Shown one piece after another: positions 2,574 to 20,000 of a stretch of DNA of 20,000 bases. The position numbers and the translations under genes were made by a program. The notes beneath the pieces are model-generated. The model was not told the origin of the DNA and ran no database searches. It saw only the letters and a program-made list of their open reading frames with translations. How positions within the stretch are numbered: position 1 is the stretch's first letter; every line of letters begins with the position of its first letter. This stretch comes from Mesotaenium endlicherianum. Its lineage: Eukaryota. The stretch is taken from assembly GCA_009602735.1 (NCBI GenBank), contig WELA01001462.1:675692-695691 (forward strand), given 5' to 3'.

Positions 2574-5500
2574 ATGCTACTACTTGTTGTTCTAGGAAAT
2601 GCTGCTATAGTGTTCCTCCTGTACAGTTCTGCTCCGGGCATCTCTCCCCCAGTCAACAACCCCAAAGTAGCAGCTCCTGTGGAAAAGGAGACCCCTAAAG
2701 GCGCTCTATCTCAACTCCCTTCTGCGCATCAAAGAGAGTGAGTGGGATCGTCTCTTTTTCGCATCTGAAAATTGAACACATGTCACAATGAGTAGCCTCA
2801 TATTAGTTCCGGATAAGTCACAGTAGTGGACCTTGTAAGGCCGTTGGAGAGGTGCATTGGCTATGCCAAAAGACCAACCCAACACCTGTACGAAAGCCTC
2901 ACATATTCTGCATGCTAGCTTTTGACAATGTTCTCTCTGCAAAGTGCAGGTTCAATGGTGGGCATGGGTTGCAAGGCTTTGTGTACTTCAGTGGATACAG
3001 GATACAAATGAACGAGTTTGCAGCATTGGGCTTGGCGGCCCTTGTTCTTCATGACCTCAAGCAAGCGGATGCATGCAGGTGTGTGTGTCCCTGCACCCTC
3101 AGCCCTCGACTCTAGTAGAGACAAATCTGTACGTGCACCACATGGATCAACATGTGTTCTCTCGTCCCCTTGCCCTCCATGCGACGTGCATGGATGGCAG
3201 TGCGATGCTGCTGGAGAGGAGCATCGGGCTCCCATTTCTCAAAGGGAGCCTGCTTGCGGAGCTGGTGAGCGCGCAGATGGGTGATGCCCAACGGCACCTC
3301 CATCCAGGGCAGCATCCAGATGCACTATCCGGGAGAGCACCACGCGCGCATGTACGAGACCATCATCCTCAAGTGCCTGCTCGCCCGCCCTGCTCTGGGC
3401 CTGTGAGTCCACACCTGCCACCCCTTTCATCTTGCAGACGACGTCTGTCACCATCAGGTGCGGGTGGTGCTTGCTTGTCCTCATATGCATACGTAATTGT
3501 GCGTGCGAACGCGTGCACAGTATGGGTGGGAGCCTGATGATGACGATAGATGGGGAAGAAGTGCCGGTGTACTCGGAGGAGCCGGGTACAGATCCTCATG
3601 AGGTGCTGGCGGGTGCGCCCTACAAGCGCTTCCTCACCTACTGCTCGCCGCCCATGTACGGCTCTATCGACCCCCAGCGCGTCAAGGAGTGGCTGGAGTA
3701 CCACCGGAGCACGCACGGTGTTGACGTGAGTTGCCCCTAAGTCCTGCCGAAGGAAGGATCTTGCGTGCTGTGTATGCCACTGCCATCCTGCTGCCGTGGG
3801 GCATGGATGTCGGCACGAGGGGGGGCACGAGGGGGNNNNNNNNNNNNNNNNNNNNNNNNNNNNNNNNNNNNNNNNNNNNNNNNNNNNNNNNNNNNNNNNN
3901 NNNNNNNNNNNNNNNNNNNNNNNNNNNNNNNNNNNNNNNNNNNNNNNNNNNNNNNNNNNNNNNNNNNNNNNNNNNNNNNNNNNNNNNNNNNNNNNNNNNN
4001 NNNNNNNNNNNNNNNNNNNNNNNNNNNNNNNNNNNNNNNNNNNNNNNNNNNNNNNNNNNNNNNNNNNNNNNNNNNNNNNNNNNNNNNNNNNNNNNNNNNN
4101 NNNNNNNNNNNNNNNNNNNNNNNNNNNNNNNNNNNNNNNNNNNNNNNNNNNNNNNNNNNNNNNNNNNNNNNNNNNNNNNNNNNNNNNNNNNNNNNNNNNN
4201 NNNNNNGGGGGGGGGGATTTGAAGCATAAAATGCGAAGCGCGATTCTTTCATAGTGTTTTCCAAAAAAGAATCGATATGACTTTGGTAAGTGAGCGTGAG
4301 GGGGTGGGCAGCACGTGCACATGTACGACGCGGGCGGGCTGGACGCGGACGTGATGAAGGTGCTGCAGCCGTACCTGGATGCGGGCACCATGGACATCAC
4401 GGACATCAAGGCCTCTCTCAAGTATGACACATGGCTCTACAGCCAGGTGAGCAGGCAGCATGCCCGTGGCCCTCGCCCTCTTCACCTACTAGAGCTTCCA
4501 GCAACGGCCGTTGCTGCTGCTGCAGGTGAACTCGTGCATGTCCCGCATGGTGGGTGGTGGGTGTACTGCGTGCACACTTGGCCTGATGTTGAGGGCGGGA
4601 GCCCGGGGATGCAGGTGCTTGTCGTGAATGACTGTGCGCTGCGGACCAGGGCTACTAGCAGGTGGGCTCTCATGATGGACATTGACGAGTACTTGCACGT
4701 CACGGCAGCGCCCCACACGCTCCCCAGCTTTTTGAAACCGATGCCAAACATCTCGTGGGTGTCCATAGGGAGCCTGTCGTACACCATTGACACGTGTGGC
4801 GCGCCCGTGGTCAGTCACTCTCCTCCTCCTTTTCCTCCTCCTCTTGGGCTGTGTCGCCCACTCAAGTGCAACTGTCACCTGTAGCCTATATGTGGCTTCC
4901 AGCAGCACATTCTTACGTGCTTCCATCGAGCAGGCGTGTAGCTGCTGACTCCTCATCCCAATGCACCACGCCAGGCCTTTCTCCTCCTTGCCGTGATTTG
5001 AAGCGCCCCTTTCACAGGCCAGCTGCTGATGAGCGCTTTTTTGAGGGAAGGGGGCATCAGGAAGGAGGGCCTCACTCGTGGGCTGTGGAGAGGCTGGTGT
5101 TCCACGAGCCCAGCGTCCACTGCAGAGACCCGTCAAAGTACCCCAGGTCAGCTCTCCCTTAGCTGCCGCTTCTTCTTCTTTCAACGCTCACTCTTGGAGG
5201 CTTGAGCGAAGGTCTCTGTGGCAAAGCCACCCCATGTCTGTGCTTTTCCTTCACCGCCAAATCTGAGGATCGCGTGCTAGGAGGTTGCGCCGTGCAATAG
5301 TGCTGCATGGGTCTAGGATTTTGTGAAGGAAAGTACGTTATGTATAGACTACCCAGTCCTTTTTGGACTCATATCCAGGAGAGGTCGAGCTGGGTCTTAT
5401 TCAGCGGATGTGGACACGAGGGTGCAGCCGAGAGCTTTGCTTGAAGTGGGATGGGCACCGAAAGTACGTGGTCAACCCCAGGCGCATAGAGGTGCTACAG

Positions 5501-5704
5501 ATTCACCGCGTCATGGAGCCGGCTGAAGGCGGCATGAACTCGCACACGTCCCTCATCCGCCTCAACCACTTCCGAGGCCTTGGCATCAAGGACAAGCCCA
5601 TCTGCCGACAGTCACTCAGCTTCTCCAACCCGGCCCCCAAGGGGTTTGTACGGGACCCCTCAGTTGCCCGCATGGCTCTGGCTGTGCGGCGTAAGATGAG
5701 GTAG
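2574..5704 (+). CDS. Spliced GT92/DUF23 glycosyltransferase, galactan beta-1,4-galactosyltransferase (GALS)-like, type II membrane protein
   Basis: Exons with GT-AG boundaries and matching phases: 2558/2574-2737 (TM segment MLLLVVLGNAAIVFLLYSS), 2950-3078 (FNGGHGLQGFVYFSGYR...FAALGL), 3277-3402 (WVMP...MYETIILKC), 3521-3725 (YCSPPMYGSIDPQRVKEWLEYH), 4312-4446 (HVHMYDAGG), 4615-4809 (VVNDC...WALMMDIDEYL, DxD motif), 5061-5146 (WAVERLVF), 5428-5704 (HRKYVVNP...IH...RLNHFRG, stop TAG). Motifs resemble plant GALS as recalled (YCGSSLYGNLSPQRVREWIAYH, HDAGG, VNDC, DVDEF, RKY, HYHG). The 5' structure is uncertain: possible first exon 2471-2487 (MRAMVR) and possible small exon ~2824-2851. Confidence 0.88.
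3836..4206. other. Assembly gap (N run) inside a GT92 intron
   Basis: Run of N flanked by G-rich tracts. The exons on either side join in frame (GVD|HVHMYDAGG), so probably no coding sequence is missing. Confidence 0.95.
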
Positions 5705-5887: not shown

Positions 5888-5970
5888 CAATTTGACAATT
5901 TGTATTCAAATTGCCTGATTTCGAAAGAAAGAAGGTGATATTAGAAAGAATAGTAGGAGTATTAGTATGC
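5888..5970 (+). repeat. 83-bp direct repeat, copy 1 (putative terminal split direct repeat)
   Basis: CAATTTGACAATTTGTATTCAAA...ATTAGTATGC matches 6590-6672 with one mismatch. Confidence 0.93.
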
Positions 5971-6166
5971 TACACTTGCGCGTCATTTTGTTCTTGTCTA
6001 GTCCTTTCCTACATGCTGTTACGCTTATCTGTACTTGACTAATCAATAACAAGACAAAGAGGTCAAAACAACTATATTCCAACTCCTAACCAACACTACT
6101 AATCGACGAAAACATATTGTAACACTAACAAAACAACAACCACCCTATTGTGCATACCAAAGACTA

Positions 6167-6549
6167 TTGCTGGCACCAACTTCGTTGCCTGCCTTGTGCC
6201 TCTCCCAGTGGAGTGGAGGGTTAGAGGGGTGGGTAAGTGGGTATATGTAGCAGCTACCTTCCTGTTGCAATGAGGCTTCTGTGCAACGAGACGCCTTATG
6301 AAGCTTTTGTTTGTCGAGGAGACACAACACGTGTGAAATTGATCAAGTTTGAACACTGTTGCTGGCACCAACTTCGTTGCCCGCCTCGTGCCTCTCCCCG
6401 TGGATTGGGGGGTTAGAGGGGTGGGTGGGTGGGTATGTGTAGCAACTACCTTCCTGCTGCAATGAGGCTTCTTTGCAACGAGAAGCCTTATGAGGGTTTT
6501 GTTTGTCGATGAGACACAACACATGTGATATCGATCAGATTTGAACACT
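6167..6549. repeat. Tandem duplication with 192-bp period (two diverged copies)
   Basis: TTGCTGGCACCAACTTCGTTGCC...TTTGAACACT starts at 6167 and again at 6359; colinear, with substitutions. Confidence 0.93.
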
Positions 6550-6600
6550 TGTCAAACTTTGGTTTGCGACATGAAATGTCGCAAACCTTCAATTTGACAA
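6549..6600. repeat. Inverted repeat / hairpin
   Basis: GGTTTGCGACAT (6561-6572), loop GAA, ATGTCGCAAACC (6576-6587) form a perfect 12-bp stem. Outer arms are TTGTCAAA (6549-6556) and TTTGACAA (6593-6600). Confidence 0.88.
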
Positions 6601-6672
6601 TTTGTGTTCAAATTGCCTGATTTCGAAAGAAAGAAGGTGATATTAGAAAGAATAGTAGGAGTATTAGTATGC
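6590..6672 (+). repeat. 83-bp direct repeat, copy 2 (internal copy just downstream of the YR stop)
   Basis: Matches 5888-5970 with one mismatch (A/G). Confidence 0.93.
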
Positions 6673-6776: not shown

Positions 6777-7821
6777 CTACTTGCGTCTAAAAGCTGCTAG
6801 AATTTGCTCTTGGTCATAGGGAGCATCGCTAGCATCGTCAGGGATGGCTATGGTTCGGGCCGCGGATGCCAGTGACTGCTGCAGGTGAAGCACGTATGGC
6901 TCTTTTCCTCGAGCAGATTTCCATCTGCCCATAGTTTGGGCTACGGCATCTGGGACGCCCAAGTTGGCGGCTGCTGTGGCGGCTCCCTTTCGCAAGGAGT
7001 GCGTCCCCATGTTCTGTGTAAGGCCCACCGATGCGAATAGTTCCTTGCACCACTTATTCACAGTGGCGTGTGAGGCGGGCTGGAGAGAAGATCTGCCAGA
7101 TGTATATGCCGAATTAGAGGTCCATCGAGAGCATACTCTGGAATCTCCGCCACTAACCTACACAACATTTTTACCGGGCACCACTTGGAGTTGCTTGCGT
7201 GAAGGGCACCCCATGGCCCTCACCAATTTGGTCCGTCTTAGAGGACGGGAGGTGCAAGTAAATGGCTGTGATGTTTGGACCACCCGTGATGTCGAGATCC
7301 TGAATTCTGGTTTTGGCCAGATCTGAGTATCGCAGACAAGCACTATACATGAGCATCATCGCGGCCACCTTCATGAGCGATGCGGCGGTGGCACCTGGCC
7401 CTGCGTGCTTTTCAAAAATCGCAGTGAGGGTGCAGGGTGCGACCGGCATCATGGTGTGCTTGGGTCTGGGCAGCAACCTTTGCGCTGCTTTTCTAAGGGT
7501 ACTGATTTTGTTGTGCAATGTGGGGCTAGGTAGCTCCGCTAGTCGATGCACGCAAAAGATTGCAGCCGATGACAAATGGTATGTAGACCAGGTGACACGC
7601 TCCTGGATGAGGTACAAGCAGTAGAGCCTGATCACCTCGACTGGCGCCGGAAGATCCTGCAAATTATGCATTTTGCACCACCGTTGAAAACGCATCCAGT
7701 AAGTGTTGTAAGTACGCAGACTGGTAGGCGCGATAGTGTGGAGCAACACGTCCACGCTCGTGGCTTCCAAGGCTTGTAAGGCCGGATTTTCGAAAAGTCG
7801 ATATTCTGCTCAGCACCTCAT
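6777..7821 (-). pseudogene. Tyrosine recombinase (phage-integrase fold) of the DIRS element, frameshifted
   Basis: N-terminal helical domain (TSLRTYNTYWMRFQRWC), then CLRYSDL (R), SKTDQ (K), WCPV and DGPLIR in a second frame (~7105-7190), and THSLRKGAAT (HxxR), GRWKS, EPY (Y) in a third frame. This implies two frameshifts. A possible ATG at 7821 overlaps the pol stop and is followed by an in-frame TGA at 7810-7812. Confidence 0.9.
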
Positions 7822-9908
7822 ACACCCAGGCGTAAGGCTAGCACCATGCACAGAGGGATGCCCTTGCCCCCAAACGCAGCCTTGTCTGTGCCAGGCAACG
7901 AAATTGAGGAGCTATAGCCTAGCGGAATGCTCGCGTGCACACAATCTATCCACTCCGCATCGCTATCTAGCAACCGCGGCCACCAGCTGGCTGACTGCCA
8001 CTGGAGTATCACTAGCGTGCAATTGGCCTTGCATCGCAGCACGTGGTCGACTACTGGAGCGACCATCTGAGGTGGTGGAAAACAATAGTTGTTTTCACCT
8101 GCCCAGTGCTCGGTGAGGGCATTTATGGCCTCAGCGCCCACCACTAGCCACCTAGAGTTGAACCTCGACAAGCGCGTGTTGCTTGCTGTGGCAAATCTAT
8201 CGATCGAATGCGGCCCCCACTCTGCTTCTAGTCTTTGAAAAGCCTCCGGTTGCAGGAAAAAGTCGTCCAAGTCTTTCCGCTTAGAGAGCTCGTCTGCCAC
8301 TGCATTCAATTCCCTAGGAATCCACTCTACGAACAAGTTGAGTTGGTGTCTAAGGCTAATACCAAATACTTGAGCACAAGCATTTGCTAAATCTGCCCTA
8401 GACGAGCCGCCTTTTCTCAACACATAATACATTGCTTGGCTGTCGACGCGCAAGAGCACTTGTCGCCCGCCTATCATTTGGATGGCTTTATCCAACGCTG
8501 CCTTCGCGGCAAGTATCTCTCTTGATGTTGACGATCCCCCGATGCTAGCAGTGGGGAGTTGGCCCAGCAATTCCCACGTCTGCCCTGAGGCCACCGATCT
8601 CAGTACTGCGCCCCATGTGGTCACGCTAGCGTCGGTGTGCATGACAAAATCAGGGGCCATGGTGGCCCGAATGGGAGCACCATTCAACTTATCAAAGTGC
8701 TCCTCCCAAAACGCAAGCTCGTGGAGCAGCCCTTCCGTCGTGGGGACCATGTCATCCCGAGTAAACCCCTGGTTGATAACAGTGTACATATGGCGTGTGT
8801 ACATGCCCGCGGTGCCCCCAAAAGCCACCTTCATGGAAATTAGCTGGCCTGCTAAAGATGCTATCGTTCTAATGTGCACGCTACGGGTCCTGTGGGCCAT
8901 AGCTCGAACGTGGAGGAGTGTTAGCAGAAGCTTTTCCTTGCGCGTCTTGCCAATGTGCACCCAAAGTTTCCGAGTGTCTATCACAACGCCCAAGAACTGT
9001 GTGATTTTTGAACACGTAAGTATTGCCTTCTGCATATTCACCACGAATCCTGCTAGTGCAAGTTCGCCGAACACCAGCCGCATTGTTCGCGCGTGGGCGT
9101 CCTCACTGGGACAGCTCACCAGAAAATTGTCTAGATATGCTATGACTCGTATCCCCATCTGCCTCCACCTTCCCACCAGCTCTTTCACCACTCGTGTGAA
9201 TACGTAAGGTGCGATCGCAAGTCCGAATGGGAGACATGTGAAAGTGTAAATTTTCTTATCCAGCTCGAACCCCAAGAACGTATGTGCATCTTCGTGCATC
9301 TTGACGTGATGATAGCCAGACCTGAGGTCAATGGTAAACACGAAGTCGTCTACGTGCACGACATTGACTAACTTATCCAACCCCTCGTACTTAAATTTTA
9401 CTTTTTTCAACGCTTTGTTCACGTGGCGCAGGTCATGAATTAATCGTAACTTCTTGCCCTCGACCACGTTCAAGGGGCATATGCAGTGTGGGAGACCTGG
9501 GAGAGTCCACTCTCTGGCAGCTCCGGAGGCTACTAGCTCCCCCACTGATTCACGGGCAAATTGTATGTGTTTCTCCACACCTTTATGGTTGCGCTGGTGA
9601 TGCGGAGGTGCAGTATGCGTGTCCCACACCAACTTGTAGCCACTCTCAATGGTAAAGAGGACTAACGAAGACGTACACCAACGTTTCCACCAGGCAACAT
9701 TTGCTCCCAAATTTCTTGCTACCACGGTTGCTTTCGGTGGTACCTTCGATGCGGCGCCGTCCGACTGCACGGCTTCTTCCTTCCGCCCCAAGTACACTTG
9801 GAGTTCGTGTTCGAAATCCTTCTCATCGCTCACGAAATTACCTATGACCCCACACACGATATAGCATACCCGCGGTTGGTCTTGGCCACGATGCCTCGAA
9901 CGTGTCAA
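7818..9908 (-). CDS. pol: DIRS pol: reverse transcriptase + RNase H + N6-adenine-methyltransferase-like domain (RT catalytic motif mutated)
   Basis: 696-aa ORF. RT: KKLRLIHDLRHVN, IDLRSGYHH, LPFGLAIAP, YLDN at 9126-9137 (expected YxDD), FLGVVID. RNase H: HTDAS, SREILA, VDSQ, WIPRELNAVADELS. MT: IDRFAT...RFNSRW...YCFPP...WQSASWWP. Confidence 0.92.
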   Translation of the reverse strand: MTRSRHRGQDQPRVCYIVCGVIGNFVSDEKDFEHELQVYLGRKEEAVQSDGAASKVPPKATVVARNLGANVAWWKRWCTSSLVLFTIESGYKLVWDTHTAPPHHQRNHKGVEKHIQFARESVGELVASGAAREWTLPGLPHCICPLNVVEGKKLRLIHDLRHVNKALKKVKFKYEGLDKLVNVVHVDDFVFTIDLRSGYHHVKMHEDAHTFLGFELDKKIYTFTCLPFGLAIAPYVFTRVVKELVGRWRQMGIRVIAYLDNFLVSCPSEDAHARTMRLVFGELALAGFVVNMQKAILTCSKITQFLGVVIDTRKLWVHIGKTRKEKLLLTLLHVRAMAHRTRSVHIRTIASLAGQLISMKVAFGGTAGMYTRHMYTVINQGFTRDDMVPTTEGLLHELAFWEEHFDKLNGAPIRATMAPDFVMHTDASVTTWGAVLRSVASGQTWELLGQLPTASIGGSSTSREILAAKAALDKAIQMIGGRQVLLRVDSQAMYYVLRKGGSSRADLANACAQVFGISLRHQLNLFVEWIPRELNAVADELSKRKDLDDFFLQPEAFQRLEAEWGPHSIDRFATASNTRLSRFNSRWLVVGAEAINALTEHWAGENNYCFPPPQMVAPVVDHVLRCKANCTLVILQWQSASWWPRLLDSDAEWIDCVHASIPLGYSSSISLPGTDKAAFGGKGIPLCMVLALRLGV

Positions 9909-10340
9909 CGATTGACTGGCATCCTACATTACCCTGCTCCGCAATTGCAGCATCGGGGTACGCTATGCATGCACCGGCAACCGATTTGTGTGGCACATGT
10001 GTGCACCCTTTTGACATCGCATTGCAGCCCCTCTATACGCGGCGATCCAAATTCCATAGGAGTGATCCCAACCATGCTCCCACTGCCAATGCCTATATGG
10101 TTGGCAAGAGCCTTCATGCATACTTGCGCCAGTGCGCGTGAATTCAATTTGTGCTTTGAAAACCTTTCGGCGACCCTCCTCTAGCCTATAGCAGCCTTGC
10201 AAATACAACGCGCCAGTGCGCGAGGGGCGACACGCCAACAAACCAAAAAACCAGCCGCGAGAACCAAAGCTCAATGAGAGTGGTCTCCATTCGTGCGCAA
10301 TCTGCCAGCGCCTAGGAGGCCTGAAGGGGCTTTCTTCCAC
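9820..10340 (-). pseudogene. Degenerate gag-like remnant of the DIRS element
   Basis: Broken zinc-knuckle-like motifs (RCCNCGAG*, CYIVCGVIGNFVSD) and an EHGW motif spread over different frames immediately upstream of pol. Confidence 0.4.
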
Positions 10341-10803: not shown

Positions 10804-11243
10804 TTAACGCTGGGGATGGCCATAAGGCCCCTGGGGTGGCCCATAAGGCCCCTGGAAGTTTGCTACCTGAGCTTGTGCTAGCAAAGGCTGCCTCTGTTGG
10901 GGGCCTAAGCCAGGGCCATTAGGTGGCCCCGAAGTACAAAACCAAGATGTGTGTTCTCCCATGTGGCAATGCCAGCAACTCAAGTCATTTCTAAACATCT
11001 TAGGAGCGCGGGGGTTAGCCTTAAACGCATACGGGCTGGCCCGTGGTTTGCGGCTACTAAGATCAAACTCTTTCTCCTCCTCTTTGTCCTTCTTACTCTT
11101 AGCCACTTGCTTTTGGACCCGATTCTCCCAATCCTTGTTCTCATCCTTAGTTTGCATGGACTTGACAACCTCATCAATCACAGGCCAGCTATGCGAGTCC
11201 GCGGAATTGAATTGCTTTTGCCGAAAAGTTATCAAAGACAAAC
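10804..11243 (-). pseudogene. gag: DIRS-type gag C-terminal fragment with CCHC zinc knuckle, truncated by LTR insertion
   Basis: LITFRQKQFNSADSHSWPVIDE resembles the DIRS gag motif LIxxRQKxIxxADxxxW. It is followed by a K/E-rich helix, CWHCHMGEHTSWFC (CX2CX4HX4C) and a GPYGPPQ/GPYGHPQ repeat. ORF sequence above 11243 is LTR read-through. Confidence 0.7.
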
Positions 11244-12387
11244 TGTCGTGCGTTACGAGGTCAAGTGCGCACCATAGGCATAAGCAACACGTCATAGGCA
11301 AGCAGGCTTTGCTGCAATGGAGTCTATAATACATGTGGCGTTATAGCCAAAAAGGGAGTCAAGTCGAAGATGTTTTCATTAAGGAATGTGTATGCTCCAG
11401 AGTGAGCACCTCAAGACTGTAATATGGTAGGAAAACAACTAATGAAGTATGGCCCAAAAGATCACTGGAAGCACATCATGATCTTCAGAGTAGTCCTATG
11501 GCAAGGGCTTAAGCTGTGACTTTGCTCACCACTTGTGAAGTTCTTCAAGTGACTGGAAGCTTGGAGGGCTTGCTCTTCACAAGAGAGTAACTAAGTGGTC
11601 CTGAAAACACAAGAGATAAAAGTGTAAGCTTTTCTGATAATCTCTGTTACTTACACCTGGCATAACGGACTTCTACAAGATGTCTCTTCTAGGGACATCT
11701 TCCGTACTTATACTCCTGGAAATCCGGCGGGGTATGCGGCGGATCCAGTGCATGTAGCACTCTAGGAGGCTCTCCTATGTCCACTAATGTGTACAAGGCA
11801 TGTACTAGCACTCCTATAGGCTAAGCATAACTCAAACAAATCAAGCAAGGTGCGTAGGATATGCTACGTGTCCCTCATTGGCCGAGCTTACCTTGGGTGA
11901 TTCTACCTAGATAGCGCCTCAAAAGTGGATCTGGAAATTGAGGAAGCTTCCTCTAGGAGTAGGTGATGCAGTCACCAAGTTATAGCCTCAATGATGCACA
12001 TGTACTATGGAAATGCAAAGCTTATGTAGGCTAAGGGGCTCGCGGATTTGNAAATTTGTGCGCACAGAGCTTGGGGTCACGAAGAGCCAACAATGTCACT
12101 TTTTGGGGACATTGAGTCACAAATTGGGCCTTGGGAAAGTTTCGCTAGGGACCGGTAGGTGACGCGAACTAGATCGCACCTATCTCGCTCGATACTTGAC
12201 CAAATGACGCGAAATTGGTGCCATTCGGAAGATGCTTCGACGCACTACACGTTGGTGACTTGGAAATCTAGAAAAGGTCAACATACAAACGCGTAAAGTC
12301 AATGCAAAGTCGGCCTTCCTAGGTTGATGTTTCGCACATGTGGAGCTTCGTTTTTATACGACAACCTCGACTCAATAAATCATGACA
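11244..12387 (-). repeat. Long terminal repeat (~1144 bp)
   Basis: Bounded by TGTCGTG...CATGACA (TG..CA, 6/7 terminal inverted repeat). No ORFs of its own. TATAAGTA on the - strand near 11705-11712. Lies just 3' of the gypsy pol and PPT. Confidence 0.78.
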
Positions 12388-12389
12388 GC

Positions 12390-12522
12390 TGTCGTGCGTT
12401 ACGAGGTCGAGTGCGCACCATAGGCATAAGCATCACGTCATAGGCAAGCAGGCTTTGTTGCAATGGAGTCTATAATACATGTGGCGTTATAGCCAAAAAG
12501 GGAGTCAAGTCGAAGATGTTTT
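12390..12522 (-). repeat. Partial second LTR copy (133 bp)
   Basis: Matches 11244-11376 with 3 substitutions and is separated from the full LTR by only GC. Confidence 0.92.
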
Positions 12523-12538
12523 AATCCCCCCCCCAGCT
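12523..12538 (-). other. Putative polypurine tract
   Basis: AGCTGGGGGGGGGATT on the - strand, directly after the pol stop (12540) and directly before LTR sequence. Confidence 0.65.
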
Positions 12539-12587
12539 CTCAGCCTCTAGCTGATGGGCTGTGTACGCTGCCTAAGGCTAGCTCAGT

Positions 12588-12722
12588 GCAGTCTCTGCAG
12601 AACCAGTCTTCAGCTGGCATGCGGGCCAGCGGCGGGTCGAGGCAGCCAATGTGAAAGCTGAGGTTGCAGCTGTCGCAGAGCAGCATCTTGGCCTCCTGGC
12701 CAATGCTGTGACAGATCTGGCA
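12588..12722 (-). other. PHD finger at the integrase C-terminus
   Basis: CQIC...MLLCDSC...FHIGCLDPPL...P...WFCRDC is an intact C4HC3 pattern, in frame with the integrase. Confidence 0.95.
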
Positions 12723-12779
12723 CGCCCAGTCCTTGGGCGGCCACGCGTCGCAGGGTTGGACCTGCAAGTCAAGGTTAGG

Positions 12780-13900
12780 AAGGTGGCACGGCCCACAGTT
12801 CTTCGTGTGGTCCTTGTGAAGACGGCCATCTGCGCCTTCCAGCTCCAGGACTCCTGACGCCAGGGCACGCTTGACGCGCAGGATGACTGGCGAGCTGCTG
12901 GTGTCGAGGGTGTTCTTCGCTTGGCGTCGCAGGTACACGAAGTCACCTGCGGAAAACTGCAACACCCGCAGATGATAGGCTCCTCCACGAGTCATGGCGT
13001 ACCTCAGTGTGTCGCGATGCTGTGCGATGCTGAGGTTATCCATGGCCATGGGCATCAGGCGCCGAAAGAGCTGAGCACGCTGCCCGATAAGAGCACTCCA
13101 TGTCTCGGGACTGTCCAAGTCCAAGACGTTCTCGGCCACGGTCCTGGCTGCTGNGGTTTTGGCTGTTGCTGGCAGGATGGGCTGTCGGCCGTAGAGAAGG
13201 AAGTAGGGAGAGTGCGAGGCCAGGGAGGCCTGCTTATTGAACCTGTACCCCATAGCCAGCCAAGGGAGGGCGTCGTCCCAGTGGGTACGGTCGTGGGCAA
13301 GGCAGTACTTCCGCAACCCTAGCTTAACGGCCTGCATCATGCGCTCGGCGAGGCCGTCAGCCGGAGGATGATCGCGGGAGGTGTTGCGGTGGTCGATCAT
13401 AGAGCGCTCCAGCAGCTTCTGAAAGCTGCCCTGGAACTCCTTCCCCTAGTCGGCCAGCACCTCAGCGCAGCCGCCAAAACGGCTAAGGACCTGATCAAGG
13501 AAGGCCTGAGCGATCCCCTCACTGACCTTGCTGGGCAAGGGCACGAGCTCGATCCACTTGGACATGTGCTCAATGATCACCAAGACGTAGAGGTTGCCCT
13601 GGCGAGACTTGGGCAGCTCTCCAGCCAAGTCAAGCGACCACCTGTAAAACAGCCCCTAAATAGGAAGGGGGCTAAGGGCAACGGTGCGCGCTGTGAAGCT
13701 CGAGCGCACACGGTCGCAGAGAGTGCAGCTGCTGACGACAACGGCGACGACCTTAGTCATGCCGTGCCACCAGTACTCGGCCTGAAGAGGACTGAGGGTG
13801 CGCTTGACACCAAAGTGCCCGAGGGACTCGTGCACTCGGCGCACCAGCTGACTGCGTATGGCAGGCTCAGGGACCACCAGGACGGAGCCGTCCGCCATCA
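12780..13900 (-). other. Integrase: HHCC zinc-binding domain, DDE core, SH3-like C-terminus
   Basis: HESLGHFG...CTLCDR; WSLDLAG, VLAD*GKEF, DGLAER; SPYFLLYGR; FSAGDFVYL. Confidence 0.93.
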
Positions 13901-14234
13901 CGCGCCGCACGCGCCCCTCCATGAAAATGAAGTCGCGGTTGCGCCTGAGGATGCGGTCGCGCTCGCGTGCGCTGACATCGGGTGCCAACTCCTTGGTCGT
14001 GACGTACTGCAGCACTGGGGCGTCGTCCCACACGTCCTCGGGACCGCGCTGCCAGCTGTCCTAATCCTCTGCCGCTGCCAGGGCCAATCGCCGAGTGGTG
14101 ACGGTCACCATGTCCAGGCTAGTGAGCCCTGCGGGCCGCACGTCGCCGTCCACGGTGAAGGCCAAGAAGGCCGCCGCGTGCCAGGCCACCGGCTCATCCT
14201 CATCGTGGCGGGCCACAGTGAGATCCCTAGAGGA

Positions 14235-14625
14235 GGGCAGCGGGTTACGGCTAAGACCGTCAGCGTCCAGGTTGGTAGAGCCTGGACGGTGGTGCACGTT
14301 GAAGGTGTACTCCTGCAAGATAAGCGCCCACCGTGCGTACTTGCCGGTCAAGCGCTCCGACATCATGAGCCACTTAAGTGGCTGATGGTCGGTGACCAGG
14401 CGGAAGTGCGTGCCGTAGAGATAGTGCCTGAAGTGCACGATTGCCCAGACTGCTGCCAGGCACTCCCCCTCGTAAGAGCCGTAGTTGCCTTCCGCGCGGT
14501 TGTTGCTGCGGCTGGCGTAGGCCACGACATGCTCGAAGCCGTCATGCTCCTGCACCAACACAGCGTCCAGCCCTGCCTGCGACCAGTCGGTGTGGACGAT
14601 GAAGGGTTTCGCGTAGTCAGGACGT
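14235..14625 (-). other. Gypsy RNase H domain
   Basis: FIVHTDWS, VAYASR, YEGECLAAVWA, VTDHQPL, ARWALILQEY, DADGLSR. Confidence 0.95.
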
Positions 14626-14629
14626 CAAG

Positions 14630-15650
14630 CACAGGAGCGCTCACCAGCAGCTCCTTGAGCTTATCGAATGCCGCGTGCTGCTCTGGTCCCCACACGTAGG
14701 CAACGCCCTTGCGGAGCAAGTCGTTGAGCGGCTTGGCTAGCTCGCTGAACCCTGGCACGAAGCGGCGGTAGTAGTTGGCGATACCAAGGAAGGCCCGCAG
14801 CTGCGAGAGATCTGTAGGAGGTGGGATGCCTGTGATGGCCGAGATCTTCGCCAGCTGGGGTGCCAAGCCGCTGGAGGAGAGCAGGTGGCCAAGGTACTCC
14901 ACCTCGCGGGTCCCAAAAGTGCACTTGCCTGGATGGCACTTGAGCCCAGCCGCCTCCAAGCGGTCCAGGACAGCAGTGATTGCGCCACGTGCTCCTCAAA
15001 CGTCTGACTGAAGACGAGCACGTCATCGATGTAGCATCGGGCAAAAGACAGCCCGGCCAGCTCCTTATCCATCACCCTCTGAAAGGTAGCTGGCCCGTTC
15101 TTTAACCCAAACGGCATCACCACCCACTCGTAGAGCCGCTGTGCTCCCCAGAACGCCGTCTTATGTTGGTCCTCCTCGGCAATGGGAATCTGGTTGAAGC
15201 CCTGACGCAGATCCAGCACTGAGAACCAAGTGCACGTGCCAATGTCATCAAAGATCTCGTCAGGCGTCGGCATAGGATATCTGTCCTGCTCGGTGACCTC
15301 GTTCAGCCTACGATAGTCACCGCACATCCTCTTCTCGGACCAGTTGCCCGAGGCATCCTTCTTGGCTGGCATGACCGTGGGTGCGGCATAGCGAGAGGAG
15401 GACTCCTGAATGAGCCGGCTGTCCTCCAGCTTGCCTGTCTGCGCGCTGATCAAGCCATCCTCGAAGTGGCTGTAGCGATAACGCTTCAGGAAAATGGGCT
15501 CCTGCGATGTGAGAGTAATCCGCATGGGGTCCCCCCTGTAGCGCCCAAGATCGTGCATGCCGCTGGCAAAGCTTGTGCTGCGCCTCCCGTCCAGCAGTGC
15601 CGTCAATTGTGCAGCCTGTGCCTTGGTGAGTGTCCCCCCCAGCTTCCATG
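14630..15650 (-). other. Gypsy reverse transcriptase (plus connection) domain
   Basis: [44 protein letters not shown] (15022-15033), KCTFG...[24 protein letters not shown]. Confidence 0.95.
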
Positions 15651-15837
15651 TTGGTGGAGCTGGTGGCGTCGCCTGGCCTGCAGCTGGAGTCTCTTCTCTT
15701 GCCGCTGGGGTAGACTGTGGTGCTGCAGGTGTCACCTGCCCTGCAGCGGTTGGCGCTCGGCCTACCGCGGGTACCTGCACTGTGGCAGCTGCGGCCAGCT
15801 GCCTGGCACCGTCTGCCTGCAAGCGAGGAAAAAGAAA

Positions 15838-15901
15838 GGATGACCGGGACTCCCTCGGTTGCTGTGAGGACGACCGGGACTCCCTGGGTCGCTGTGAGGA
15901 C
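15838..15901. repeat. 30-bp tandem duplication in the DNMT-RT linker
   Basis: GACCGGGACTCCCT(C/G)GGT(T/C)GCTGTGAGGA occurs twice. Confidence 0.85.
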
Positions 15902-16135
15902 TCCTCTCTCCGCCGTCCCCCCCCCCAGCAAACCAGAGTCCTCCCTGCGCGGCGGCGGGGAGGAGGGGCGCGCGCGCGCCTGCGGTGCAGGCCCTGCGCG
16001 CTGAGGATGCCACGTCGTGCCGAGCGGGGCCTGCGTGTTATCGTCGGTGGAGTCATTGGCCATATCATCGGCAAGCCGAGGCAGCTCGGGATGCCGGGCT
16101 GCGGCGTAGAGAGGCGCCAAGGCCTGCGTCTGCAG

Positions 16136-17074
16136 CAGAATCCACGTGAGGACGTTGGCGTCGATCGCCTGCCCCAAGAGGCAAATGCGGTTCACCTCAG
16201 TGAGACCGTCCACCTGTGTGAGATGCAACGGGAAGCCCATGGCACGCTCCATCTCCGCAGGGAGCGGCCTGTCAAACATGCCAGTCTCCAGGTCGATGAC
16301 CATCCCGCGCTGATCTCCGACGAAGGCGTCGCTGTCGTAGCGGCTGACAAAAGTCGGCAGCGCGCGAGGGACGTCATGCAAGACCTCACACTGCGCCATG
16401 GAGGGATGTGGTAGTGCAGTCACGCGCTGGGACAGACAAGGGGCATTGAGGATGGAGTCGACGGGGTGACGTGGATGAGAGGCGGCCAATGCCTCGAGAG
16501 TACCTGGCATCGCCAGGTTCGTGAAGTAGGCGCGGACGCGGTACGCGAAGGAACCAATTTGGGCAGCGTCGATGACGGCCTCGCGGCCGACGTAGCTGCT
16601 GCAAAGAGCGAAGTCTGCGCTAACATCGGGTTAGTGATTGTGGCGCGCGGCCACGTTCTCCAGGACCCACGCAAGTGTGTGCGGCGGCTGGCGATCCTCA
16701 ACAATGTTGAGGATGCGGAGCAAGTGCCAGAAGAGGGCTGTGCGGGGATCGTTGAGCGCCCTGCCACGCCCGGCTCTGGGGAAGCCCTGGCACTCCCAAC
16801 CGGCGATGACGAGGTCAATGGGCCCAAGGCGGGTGACATGCTCGACGGTGATGTCGCGGATATCCATGGGCCAGTCTGTCTGAGCGCGGCGAAATACGTG
16901 CGCGGGAAGGAGGTCTGGGAATCGCTCGTGGCACAACGCCATCTACCGACGGGCCACCTGCTGGGCCTCAGGATCGGGATCGACGTAAACGTAGCGGCGC
17001 AGCGGGATGCCGGCTTGTAAGGTCGCGAGCAACCCGGTGGCGATGCCGGCAAAGAGCTCGACGAGGACGATGCC
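16136..17074 (-). pseudogene. C5 cytosine DNA methyltransferase domain (DNMT3-like) within the polyprotein
   Basis: One reading frame with two stops. Motif I VLVELFAGIATG, II YVYVD, III DIRDIT, IV DLVIAGWECQGF (Cys at 16790-16792), VI WVLENV (16652-16660), VIII AYRVRAYFTN, IX ERAMGFP, X LLGQAID. Confidence 0.92.
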
Positions 17075-19089
17075 ACCGAGCCGCTCGTCTAGAGCGTCTG
17101 CGCAGATAGGAGTCGGAAGTGGGCGACACCCCATTGCGGGGGTGCCGAGCTGAGCGGGCGGCGGGAAGGTACGCTCGGCGTTGTGCTGATGTGGCGCCAT
17201 GCGGAGGGCGGCCACAGCACGGTCTGCGTAGTCACGCGTAAGGCTGGGGATGCGGTCTGTGAGCGGCTGCGGACGCTCCTCCCGTGCGTGGTCCTGGTAG
17301 GTGCGCCACCGCAGGCGCGCATCCTGCAGGGCTGTCGGAAGGACAGCGCGGGCCTGGCGTCTGGCCGAGGCCACGCACAGCTGCTGCCCCCTGTCGCGCT
17401 GGGCGCGGTCAGTCTGGTGCGAGGTCGCGTGGGCCAGCTGGTCAAGAACGGGACGCCGAGTCAAGTAGGGGTGCAGGTCGAAGTAGGCCCGCTGGCGTGC
17501 GCGCATGTCGGCAGAGGGGACTGTGCAGACGGAGCGCTCGGAGCTGTCGACCTCCTGCGGGGACCGAACTACCCGGCGAGGGGCCAACTGGACTCGCGGC
17601 CGGGGCTGCCCCCGTGGGACGGGCGCGTCTCGGGGCTGCCGGAGACTAGACATGAGCCGTGTGCGTGCGGCGGCCGTAAATGGGTGGCGACTGGGTGGCC
17701 TGCTGTCGATGCGGGCCACCTTGGGAGGGGGTGACCGGGAGAGACCGTCGCCAGCGATGTGGCTGCGAGGGACGCTGGCGCGCGGCGCTGTAGGGGCCAG
17801 CATCACGAAATGCGCCTCGGAAGAAGACTGAGCATCGTCGCCAGCTGAGAGGGGCCGGAAGGGCGGAGTGCGGCGTCGGTCTCGAGTGTCGTCGTATGGC
17901 GGCGTGTCCCCGCGGGCCCGCATGTCGTCGTAAGGAGGCGTGCGCTCCCTGTCGTCGTAGGGCGGCACGATGGAGCGGGCTCGCGTCTCGCGGAGGGGAG
18001 GCACCTGTTGCGTCTCACAAAGGGGTGTGAGCGATCGGGAGCGGCTCGTCTCGCGGAGAGGAGTGGTCTCTCGAGGGGGCCCGATGGTCGGCCTAGTGCG
18101 ATGTGCGTAGGTCAGCTGGGCGCAGATAGACGGGGTCGTGCGGGGTGGCTCGCGGACGCTGAGCCTGGGCGCTGGCTGCTGTATGGAGTGTGTGCTAGCG
18201 CTAGAGGAGGCCGCGGCAGCCCGGCTCGTCGCAAACAAATGCGCGATGCGGCGACACTCGTGGCTCGTCGAGCAGTTGTGTGACACTGGACGGCTGGGTC
18301 CAGCGGCGTCGGTGCGAGCCCTGCTGGGCCAGTTGTGTGTCATGGGCTGGCTGGGTGCGCTGAAGCCGGGTGGACCAGTAGGTGCGTGCTGCCTGCGTGC
18401 CATAGGCGCAGCTGGCGGGGGCTCCGCGCCAAGTACCTCGACGGATGCCTCTGGCAGTCGCTCCCACTGTGTCTCCTCCTCACTCTTGAGGGACTGGTTG
18501 TCGGATCTGCCAGGAGAAGCTGCCTGCCGCATGACCTCGTCCTCGGATGCCGTGGTGCAAGGCCAAGTCTTGCCGGTCTGATGCGAGGCGTCGTGAGGGG
18601 GCGGCTGCGAGTCCATACTGTACTGAATGGCCACGCCAACCGGCACGTCGTGGCAAACGCGGACGTCGGTCCTCGCGGACGGCTCGCCGCGAGAGGCCGA
18701 GACCCCCTGATGAGCCGTAGGCGCTGCGGCCGCACCGCGAGCAAGGGCGGCGGCAGCGATGGCTGTGCTGGCCGTGGCAAGGGCCTCAGTGGCATCGTCC
18801 TCCATCTGCCGCATCATCGCGCTGTGGACAGTGCAGATGCGGATCTGCTCCCTGGCCTGGGCTGCCAGGACATCCGCCTGCTGGTGCGGCGTGAGGTGGA
18901 GCTCGGCACTTGGTAGGTCCGGCTCCTTGTCCTGTGGCTCGAGCAGGTCCACTCCCACAGAGATCTCCTTGTCCTCGGGCCCGTCCTTATTGGTCTTGAC
19001 CATTGGCCGGCCATCGCCCAGCCCCATGAAGCCATAAAGATCGGACACTGCTGGGCGGCGATCGACAATATCAAGGGGCAAGGATGCGG

Positions 19090-19480
19090 TGCGCGTCCCC
19101 CCTGTCCTCCAGTCGGGACGATAGAAGACGCGCTCCGCCCAGTTGTCGACCGCGGCGCCAATGGGAAAGAGCACGGCCTGCCCTAGGAGCACATCAAAGG
19201 ACTCGGAAGGAGTGAGGAGTGCGTGCCGATGGATGGTTGTCTCGTCTACCGTGCCTGGGCGCAGAGTGAACAATAGTGCCAACCTCGTGCCGCCGGCGAC
19301 GGTCTCGGACGTGCCGGCGGCGGTGTTAATGCGCGTCGGAGAGTCCTCCAAGTCGGCGGAAGAGAGTCCCAGCTGACGGAAGTAATGGAGGATGATGAGA
19401 GCCGGCTGCGCGCATGTGTCGAACATGATGCGCTGCGGCGCCTGGGTGTTGACGAGCACGATCCCCAACGAATTATCCAA
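19090..19480 (-). other. Retropepsin-like aspartic protease domain
   Basis: RIMFDTCAQPALII (D-T-G motif altered to DTC at 19412-19420), INTAAG flap, FDVLLGQ. Confidence 0.8.
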
Positions 19481-20000
19481 AAACGCGACGTTAGGAGTGC
19501 TGATCATCCTGCGCTCATGCGCAGGGCGCGCGGGCGCGGATTGCACCGCGGTGGCGGCATCGGCCGTTGGCCTCCTGGCGGCGGTGCACAGCGTGGCTTT
19601 GCGCGACTGGAGCATCAGCTGAGCGGCCTGGCGCGTTGCCTCCATGGAGACGCCGAGCTCTGCAAAGGAGACCGCCGGCATGCGGTGCAGTGCTAGAGAG
19701 ATGACCTTGGTGCTGAGCTGCACCGTCGTCATAGGCGAAGCGAGCGCATGTGGCGTCGGCTCTGCTGAGGTCGTGGAGGGCTCTAGGATGCGGAAGGAAT
19801 GGGGCAGCCGCGGTGCCTCCTCCGTCCGGCGTCCCTGGTCCGGCTCGGCGCGCTTCTGCAGAACAACGGGCCGACTGGCCGGTGCTACGAGCGTGTGCTC
19901 GCGGCTCGCGCGCCTGACTGCGGAGCGGTTGCCGAGTGGCTGCGCGCGTGCGCAGCAGGCCAGAATGGCTGCTGCTGGCGCAGCCGGCAAACTTGCCGCG

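Follow-up and report, generated by a model that had tools for sequence, protein, structure and literature searches.

The 20,000-nucleotide (nt) stretch of Mesotaenium endlicherianum DNA analyzed here (GenBank assembly GCA_009602735.1, contig WELA01001462.1, positions 675,692 to 695,691; hereafter the window) carries on its minus strand a Ty3/Gypsy retrotransposon with a cytosine DNA methyltransferase (DNMT) in its polyprotein. The element ends at its 3' side at 11244 and runs off the window at 20000, where its open reading frame (ORF) exits, so that gag and the 5' end lie beyond the visible sequence. This copy is dead. As a whole, we think it somewhat better than an even bet that it is a dead member of a multi-copy family of Gypsy-DNMT3 elements that methylate their own cDNA, dock their integrase through a PHD finger, and have that integrase cut a palindrome inside the long terminal repeat (LTR).

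The DNMT lies in one uninterrupted frame with the upstream protease (PR); coming from past 20000, this frame covers the protease, a 689-aa spacer, and the DNMT without a frame change. C5-methyltransferase motifs I-IV, VI, and VIII-X, in the customary I-X numbering, were all located between protease and reverse transcriptase (RT), as the initial annotation had stated, but the shared frame does not extend to the RT, which sits at +1 relative to the DNMT after a further frame change. The profile search proposed at that time recovered PF00145 (E 7e-9, with X placed at both stops of the domain) together with RT, rve, and PHD from the repaired translation. The best PDB matches were DNMT3A/B/C, at E 7e-14 with the single sequence (DRM, 3e-6; M.HhaI, 2e-3), and a profile ranking gave DNMT3 2e-26 versus 6e-12 and 1e-8 for the runner-up families, with DNMT2 also well behind. 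The predicted structure of the domain (pLDDT 90) retrieved DNMT3A/B/C in all 34 Foldseek rows listed (ranks 1-48). Judged by this ranking against PDB entries, a set with no host DNMT sequences, the domain is classed as DNMT3-type with an unrearranged motif order. The catalytic Cys of motif IV, the Glu of motif VI, the Arg of motif VIII, and the SAM-binding motif I are all present, and across 202 DNMT domains of the family, near-duplicates included, G-[WF]-x-C is retained in 182, EN in 191, and RxRxx[WF] in 193.

As the initial annotation had recognized, the window copy is inactivated: it has stops at 16945 and 16633 (DNMT), 14063, 13658, and 13448, and its frame shifts near 14980 in the RT and near 14626 in the RNase H. 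To describe its sister copies, we used contigs of public sequencing runs aligned to the window, of which run X1 alone gave 10,794 across 11000-20000; summed contig depth was never taken as copy number. These sisters keep the DNMT. In X1 the DNMT bins have a summed depth similar to that of the protease and RT bins, DNMT-spanning contigs also occur in runs X5 (755 nt) and X8 (1452 nt), and among the 13 joints listed there was no whole-DNMT deletion. Both DNMT stops are private to the window copy: 34 X1 contigs, with all of the depth, read otherwise at 16945, and 20 contigs, with 99% of the depth, do so at 16633. A substitution at 19414 in the protease catalytic motif is likewise private (33 X1 contigs, 98% of depth, read otherwise), and about 79% of X1 depth lacks the frame changes near 14980 and 14626. 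The +1 change between DNMT and RT coincides with no listed majority indel; an X10 contig matches the window without any difference there, and one X1 contig has a two-letter difference in length. The Pro/Arg/Ser-rich spacer is common to the sisters as well, since ungapped contigs of 1319 and 1134 nt bridge it. At 689 aa (17090-19156) it compares with 56-328 aa among 55 related proteins and is more than twice as long as the longest of them. Among the best-supported of the differences listed, at sites where the window differs from 85% or more of X1 depth, 36 of 59 are C-to-T in the window copy, with CHH contexts under-represented (8 versus 17.8 expected, p 0.001), which fits decay under host CG and CHG methylation.

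Homologs of the DNMT are numerous, with 1,977 clusters at E<=1e-3 and 122 clusters (50% identity) at E<=1e-30; a search with the C-terminal piece of the domain alone gave 1 match. Among the rows compared, none exceeded 43% identity to the window DNMT. A PR-DNMT protein of Klebsormidium nitens (KFL_013780020, P0162) matches it at 32% (E 1e-41), and the two are placed in one DNMT clade. The initial annotation had called the class known but rare, and the DNMT does belong with the Gypsy-DNMT3 described by de Mendoza et al. in 2018 (PMC5890265), within which sequence comparison places the window element as a new lineage. Two layouts could be told apart. The top 150 representatives comprise 21 with layout A (PR-DNMT-RT), 86 with layout B (RT-RNase H-DNMT-integrase, in which the integrase directly follows the DNMT), and 43 that are too short to assign. 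One protein, P0032, is a single 2300-aa ORF with exactly the domain order of the window element. Thirty proteins were looked up by name, and those with layout A came from Klebsormidium nitens, Mesostigma, Closterium, and Marchantia, while Scenedesmus was the only named source of layout B. The Marchantia polymorpha protein (P0024, MARPO_0020s0163) and the subfamily of loci L001-L066 extend the family to a liverwort, a land plant; PMC6338049 states absence for tracheophytes only. Neither the DNMT nor the RNase H ORF found a relative among viral contigs, and an Atlas look-up of the window RT returned generic RT clusters only.

In trees of 90 elements built with FastTree, a single branch separates layout A from the other rows of the DNMT tree (support 97); in the RT tree, 16 of 17 layout A rows group with the window (support 99) and one long branch falls outside. 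Path distances in the two trees are correlated (Mantel rho 0.57, p 0.001, a value inflated by near-copies). In four unsaturated pairs of largely intact relatives, the ratio of nonsynonymous to synonymous substitution rates (dN/dS) of the DNMT was 0.136, 0.136, 0.169, and 0.171. We conclude that the DNMT is family-wide, under purifying selection in relatives, and co-inherited with the RT. Of the two outcomes that the initial annotation had named as refuting it, sister copies lacking the DNMT segment and a DNMT free of purifying selection, neither turned up.

The boundary between DNMT and RT is organized differently in different members. Of 23 metagenome loci in which the RT follows the DNMT, 18, which amount to about four lineages, keep the two in the same frame; each of these 18 has a stop at the homologous position, with CAR after it in 17. 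This is the sole stop between DNMT and RT in L004, L007, L008, L013, and L015; the exact sequence CAR-YYA, the readthrough signal of tobacco mosaic virus, follows it in L004, L008, L013, and L015, and L015 has an otherwise intact ORF pair of 1369 and 1047 aa. Many PR-DNMT proteins, from independent contigs, stop 122 or 155 aa past the domain profile. In layout B the boundary before the RT is a stop (L040, L021), a +1 change (L026), or a -1 change (L031, L034). The +1 overlap of the PR and RT ORFs in L026 (7826-7884) has TTT CGT in the upstream frame, resembling the UUU-CGN motif of +1 frameshifting in influenza PA-X and amalgaviruses. Because of these boundary positions, the DNMT falls on the Gag side of the recoding point in layout A and on the Pol side in layout B, and the dose of DNMT would differ between them; if the stop between Gag-PR-DNMT and RT is leaky, a particle would contain more DNMT than RT.

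The more surprising feature of the element is its ends, which the initial annotation missed. It had placed the start of the element at 12540, but the element runs 1.3 kb further, to 11244, and the PHD finger is followed by a G-rich tract and then by repeats in the order B1, A2, and B2. We place the insertion point at 11243 because 19 RNA reads of the flanking repeat (run X22) leave the stretch there. At the joint between B1 and A2 lies the palindrome CGACA-GC-TGTCA, which has a single match in the window and whose halves match the termini of the elements, with 5' ends starting TGTCATG and 3' ends finishing CGACA. Its core, GACAG(C/T)TGTC, occurs no more than 3.5 kb after the PHD finger in 14 of 37 PHD-bearing loci, the window included (0.15 expected), in both layouts, and additionally in L007 and L045; most of the loci that lack it are contigs ending early. 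The complete order A-cds-B-A-B (cds, coding sequence) is seen in L066, while the window shows B-A-B; a second sequence context at 11380 in run X5 suggests that the A1 copy stands at the 5' end of the window element, outside the window. Both full-length relatives are flanked by 4-bp target duplications (L066, AAGG; L050, CACA), and they start with TG and end with CA. The window element itself has the purine tract and the CA end.

These termini and a target duplication within the usual 4-6 bp, together with the order PR-RT-RNase H-integrase and a DDE core, are those of Ty3/Gypsy elements. The element carries a DDE integrase of the rve type instead of the tyrosine recombinase of DIRS/Ngaro elements, and the C-terminal reader of its integrase is a PHD finger only, with no chromodomain as in chromoviruses. 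It departs from a canonical element with two LTRs and a tRNA site in having ends of the form A...B-A-B, and no TGG-type tRNA site was found after A1 in L007, L028, L063, and L066. A 17-nt complement of the post-A1 site lies inside repeat A in L066, L063, and L028 (0 of 200 shuffles), and in L019 and L031 there are arm pairs of 15 nt in which the four central bases change in both arms together. The best such match in the window's own family is 9/11, from a low-agreement loose end. The joint between A2 and B2 is 1 nt long in L066 and 16 nt long in L050/L042, where it opens with a near copy of the post-A1 sequence. Two copies (L014:11865 and L022:7057) end at B1 without A2-B2, which could reflect a one-LTR circle, recombination between B1 and B2, or a collapsed assembly. 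In L019, L031, L033, and L039 the contig passes from the junction across A into gag, but we do not take this as evidence for circles, since assembly loops look identical. We rejected B1-A-B2 as a separate terminal-repeat retrotransposon in miniature, since no purine tract precedes B2 and L066 has an A at its 5' end. The palindrome pattern was also met in 27 viral stretches, which are unrelated and among which none carries any of seven domain profiles.

The PHD finger at the integrase C-terminus is intact, as had been noted (E 1.5e-11, 8 of 8 ligands). PHD fingers that read H3K4me3 have an aromatic-cage tryptophan two residues before the Zn-binding His. The window PHD has Ser at this position, and only 1 of 89 distinct PHD fingers of the family has the tryptophan. 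Its PDB neighbors are the PHD fingers of KMT2C/D, CHD4, PHF12, UHRF1, KDM5 (PHD1), KAT6, AIRE, and PHF21A, many of which bind unmodified H3 tails. Among 66 integrase-bearing representatives, 50 have a PHD finger.

The life cycle that we favor would run as follows. The DNMT is likely packaged with Gag and likely freed by the protease, and it would then probably methylate CG in the element's own new cDNA, in the particle or just out of it; this target is favored because the analogous SymbioDIRS-Dnmt3 methylates CG in yeast. Reverse transcription would be self-primed, with the purine tract as the other priming site, giving a linear cDNA with an ordinary LTR (B-GC-A) at both ends and an attachment site internal to the LTR. 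Through its PHD finger, the integrase likely docks on histone H3 tails that carry no modification. Its DDE core would make a cut inside the palindrome, at CA^GC-TG, staggered after CA on both strands of the attachment site (CGACAGCTGTCA), leaving two pre-processed ends with 2-nt overhangs, whose insertion would create a 4-bp duplication. The A and B ends left free would be end-joined, either before insertion (in a 2-LTR circle) or after it, which would produce the A-cds-B-A-B form and a scar that varies; from a one-LTR circle, A-cds-B would result. Extending this to a superfamily across the green lineage (charophytes, a liverwort, and chlorophytes), with tRNA-free priming, a mid-LTR palindrome cut by a DDE integrase, a scarred LTR permutation, a layout-dependent DNMT dose, and cDNA methylation ahead of PHD-guided insertion, is a tentative proposal to which we give slightly less than an even chance.

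For the enzyme, other roles can be considered. The DNMT might act in the nucleus on host chromatin, at the insertion site or genome-wide, linked to the integrase and its PHD finger in a pairing of reader and writer such as DNMT3 has in its ADD and catalytic domains. The position directly before the integrase in 86 of the 150 top representatives speaks for this, as does a PHD of the cage-less type, whose H3 preference the DNMT3 ADD domain shares. We nevertheless hold it to be improbable: in the window's layout RT and RNase H separate the DNMT from the integrase, and one subfamily has a stop between them, so that most DNMT would not be attached to the PHD. We give equally little credence to the idea that the domain has been retained for a non-catalytic function or one not directed at DNA (it might bind RNA or the ends of the cDNA, for example, or methylate RNA), although three observations that weigh against cDNA methylation would suit it. 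The Glu of motif IV (GWECQ) replaces the usual Pro in 81 of 202 domains, the window's among them (we rejected it as decay of this copy, as it is the commonest form in the family). The coding DNA of the window element shows no CpG depletion (observed/expected 0.78-1.12, with 0.56 in the host flank and 0.27-0.80 in relatives). The DNMT of the Klebsormidium element, KnitGypsy-Dnmt3, gave no methylation in yeast, a result that its authors call inconclusive, and human DNMT3B failed the same test (PMC5890265). Set against a non-catalytic role, the catalytic Cys, EN, and RxR are retained in about nine of ten domains in both layouts. That the DNMT is a one-off or neutral passenger of this copy found no support and seems to us very improbable indeed, given sister contigs with the DNMT but without its stops, the 122 clusters, the low dN/dS values, and the congruent RT and DNMT trees; the DNMT-based ascertainment of the relatives biases against this explanation.

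For the ends alone, a less likely but serious alternative is that they are split direct repeats of the DIRS/Ngaro type, in which the B-A junction is a template for rebuilding the ends of a circular cDNA that is then cut there, and B2 is transcribed rather than joined on. PMC5890265 describes the repeat order as that of DIRS, and the junction does consist of the right end, 2 nt, and the left end. The A2|B2 joint, however, varies between copies and includes post-A1 sequence in L050/L042, the purine tract abuts B1 and the self-priming-like site abuts A1 as for an ordinary B+A LTR of linear cDNA, and L014 and L022 end at B1 as from a one-LTR circle (with assembly collapse or recombination as other possible causes). 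Further points count against our preferred reading of a self-methylating element with an integrase-cut palindrome. Every relative was ascertained via its DNMT, so that sisters lacking it would have been missed. Purifying selection on the DNMT, which the initial annotation had made a condition of its proposal, holds for largely intact relatives (dN/dS 0.14-0.17), and two pairs of decayed copies gave 0.51-0.52; 7 of the 13 pairs were saturated, and none lay within the window's own family. In X22, 336 RNA reads fell on the stretch (6% of the run read), none of them more than 99% alike and 0 on the DNMT. The stop between DNMT and RT is not universal, as P0032, P0091, and P0232-4 have an open frame across this point and the window has a +1 change. 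L030, L051, and L057 lack the palindrome although their downstream sequence exceeds 3.2 kb, L001, L025, and L026 gave no self-priming-like arm pair, and in L010, L015, and L056 no arm pair was beyond chance. Finally, 16 of 66 integrase-bearing representatives, many of them truncated, have no PHD finger.

Table 1. Features of the Gypsy-DNMT3 copy in the window (positions of the 20,000-nt stretch).
Feature	Position	Strand	Details
Aspartic protease domain	19157..19441	-	motif 19423-19403; Pfam gag-asp_proteas E 7e-4
PR-DNMT spacer	17090..19156	-	689 aa; Pro/Arg/Ser-rich, low-complexity, stop-free, short PPYDD repeats
DNMT3-type C5 cytosine methyltransferase	16136..17089	-	protease frame; stops 16945, 16633; motifs I 17062-17033, II 16993-16973, III 16864-16850, IV 16804-16778 (GWECQ), VI 16663-16652, VIII 16540-16523, IX 16255-16229, X 16177-16154
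Linker with +1 frame change	15660..16135	-	DNMT frame open to 15319; RT frame open from 16191
Reverse transcriptase	14876..15660	-	YIDD 15033-15016; private frame change near 14980
RNase H	14295..14630	-	private frame change near 14626
Integrase	13176..13904	-	HHCC zinc finger 13904-13689; DDE D 13628, D 13451, E 13346; stops 13658, 13448
PHD finger, C4HC3, integrase C-terminus	12588..12728	-	intact; E 1.5e-11, 8/8 ligands
Polypurine tract, G-rich	12525..12540	-	directly before B1
Repeat B1	12389..12525	-	137 nt; 4 differences versus B2
Internal palindrome CGACA-GC-TGTCA	12383..12394	.	B right end, 2-nt spacer, A left end
Repeat A2	11380..12388	-	1009 nt; begins TGTCATG
Repeat B2	11243..11379	-	ends CGACA at 11244, the element 3' end

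Other parts of the window contain a separate element of the DIRS type on the minus strand (6777-9923), with a 701-aa ORF for RT, RNase H, and a Dam methyltransferase (Dam E 5e-4); its tyrosine recombinase is in two pieces (6777-7809). Two kinds of methyltransferase-bearing retroelement thus adjoin in the window. An ORF with a CX2CX4HX4C knuckle (10804-11243, minus strand) is broken by the 3' end of the Gypsy element and is transcribed from other copies (X22); it is possibly the gag of the adjoining DIRS element, which would make the Gypsy copy a nested insertion. A 192-nt tandem duplication (6160-6543) downstream of the DIRS recombinase is flanked by direct repeats of 83 nt (99%; 5888-5970 and 6590-6672), which are possibly the terminal repeats of the DIRS element. 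A host gene of glycosyltransferase family 92 with introns lies at about 3500-5700 on the plus strand, with an assembly gap at 3836-4206. Its nearest match is from Mesotaenium (64%), followed by Closterium (37-38%), which points to a zygnematophyte alga as the likely host.

It is a standing puzzle that transposons should carry the very enzyme by which they are normally silenced, and the family described here is far wider than the single Klebsormidium case of the 2018 paper, offering many natural enzymes in two layouts with intact ORFs. Its DNMT and PHD parts are already known separately, as both Gypsy-DNMT3 and PHD-bearing algal Gypsy elements have been described. The Gypsy-DNMT3 of streptophytes is KnitGypsy-Dnmt3 of de Mendoza et al. 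(PMC5890265), the name itself coming from bioRxiv 10.64898/2026.05.21.726589, and KnitGypsy-Dnmt3 shares with the window element a DNMT3-type domain in the Gypsy Pol of a streptophyte alga, the order A-cds-B-A-B, and purifying selection, while the 689-aa spacer sets the window element apart. The main-text portions of PMC5890265 do not mention the PHD finger, the second layout, the recoding site, the internal palindrome, or self-priming, although its figures and main supplement may differ. In the literature searched, which left Repbase, theses, and most subscription papers outside, no description of layout B, of the readthrough site, or of the internal palindrome came up.

Several other systems resemble the window element in part. 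The SymbioDIRS-Dnmt3 and SymbioLINE-Dnmt elements of Symbiodinium are also retrotransposons with a C5 methyltransferase, and related retrotransposon DNMT3s such as SymbioDIRS-Dnmt3, which also has the split-repeat order, methylate CG de novo in yeast (PMC5890265); they differ in using a tyrosine recombinase or a LINE endonuclease, whereas the window element has a DDE integrase and its relatives have 4-bp duplications. The EpiLTRs of Cymbomonas and Euglena (bioRxiv 10.64898/2026.05.21.726589) combine an LTR element with a cytosine methyltransferase and a chromatin reader, but their enzyme is related to DNMT4, a Dam domain is added, and the reader is a chromodomain and not a PHD finger. A histone-reader domain in the polyprotein, proposed to steer insertion, is also found in chromoviruses and in Gypsy-7a_cRei of Chlamydomonas (PMC9940879), for which no methyltransferase is listed and which has ordinary paired LTRs. 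The idea that the Selgy/Phygy lineages carry a PHD finger was not borne out, as the term "PHD" occurs 0 times in PMC6317226; the same source provides, in Tf1/Tcn1, a precedent for tRNA-free self-priming. If our model of the palindrome is true, a eukaryotic retrotransposon would routinely use integrase cleavage at an encoded junction, which has so far been argued mainly for retroviral 2-LTR circles, and this could explain why LTR-finding software overlooks these elements. The closest parallel is foamy virus, whose DDE integrase cleaves a palindromic LTR-LTR junction into processed ends (PMC1180852), but there the junction arises only in 2-LTR circles, whereas the family in the window encodes it in each repeat and keeps it in the integrated copy.

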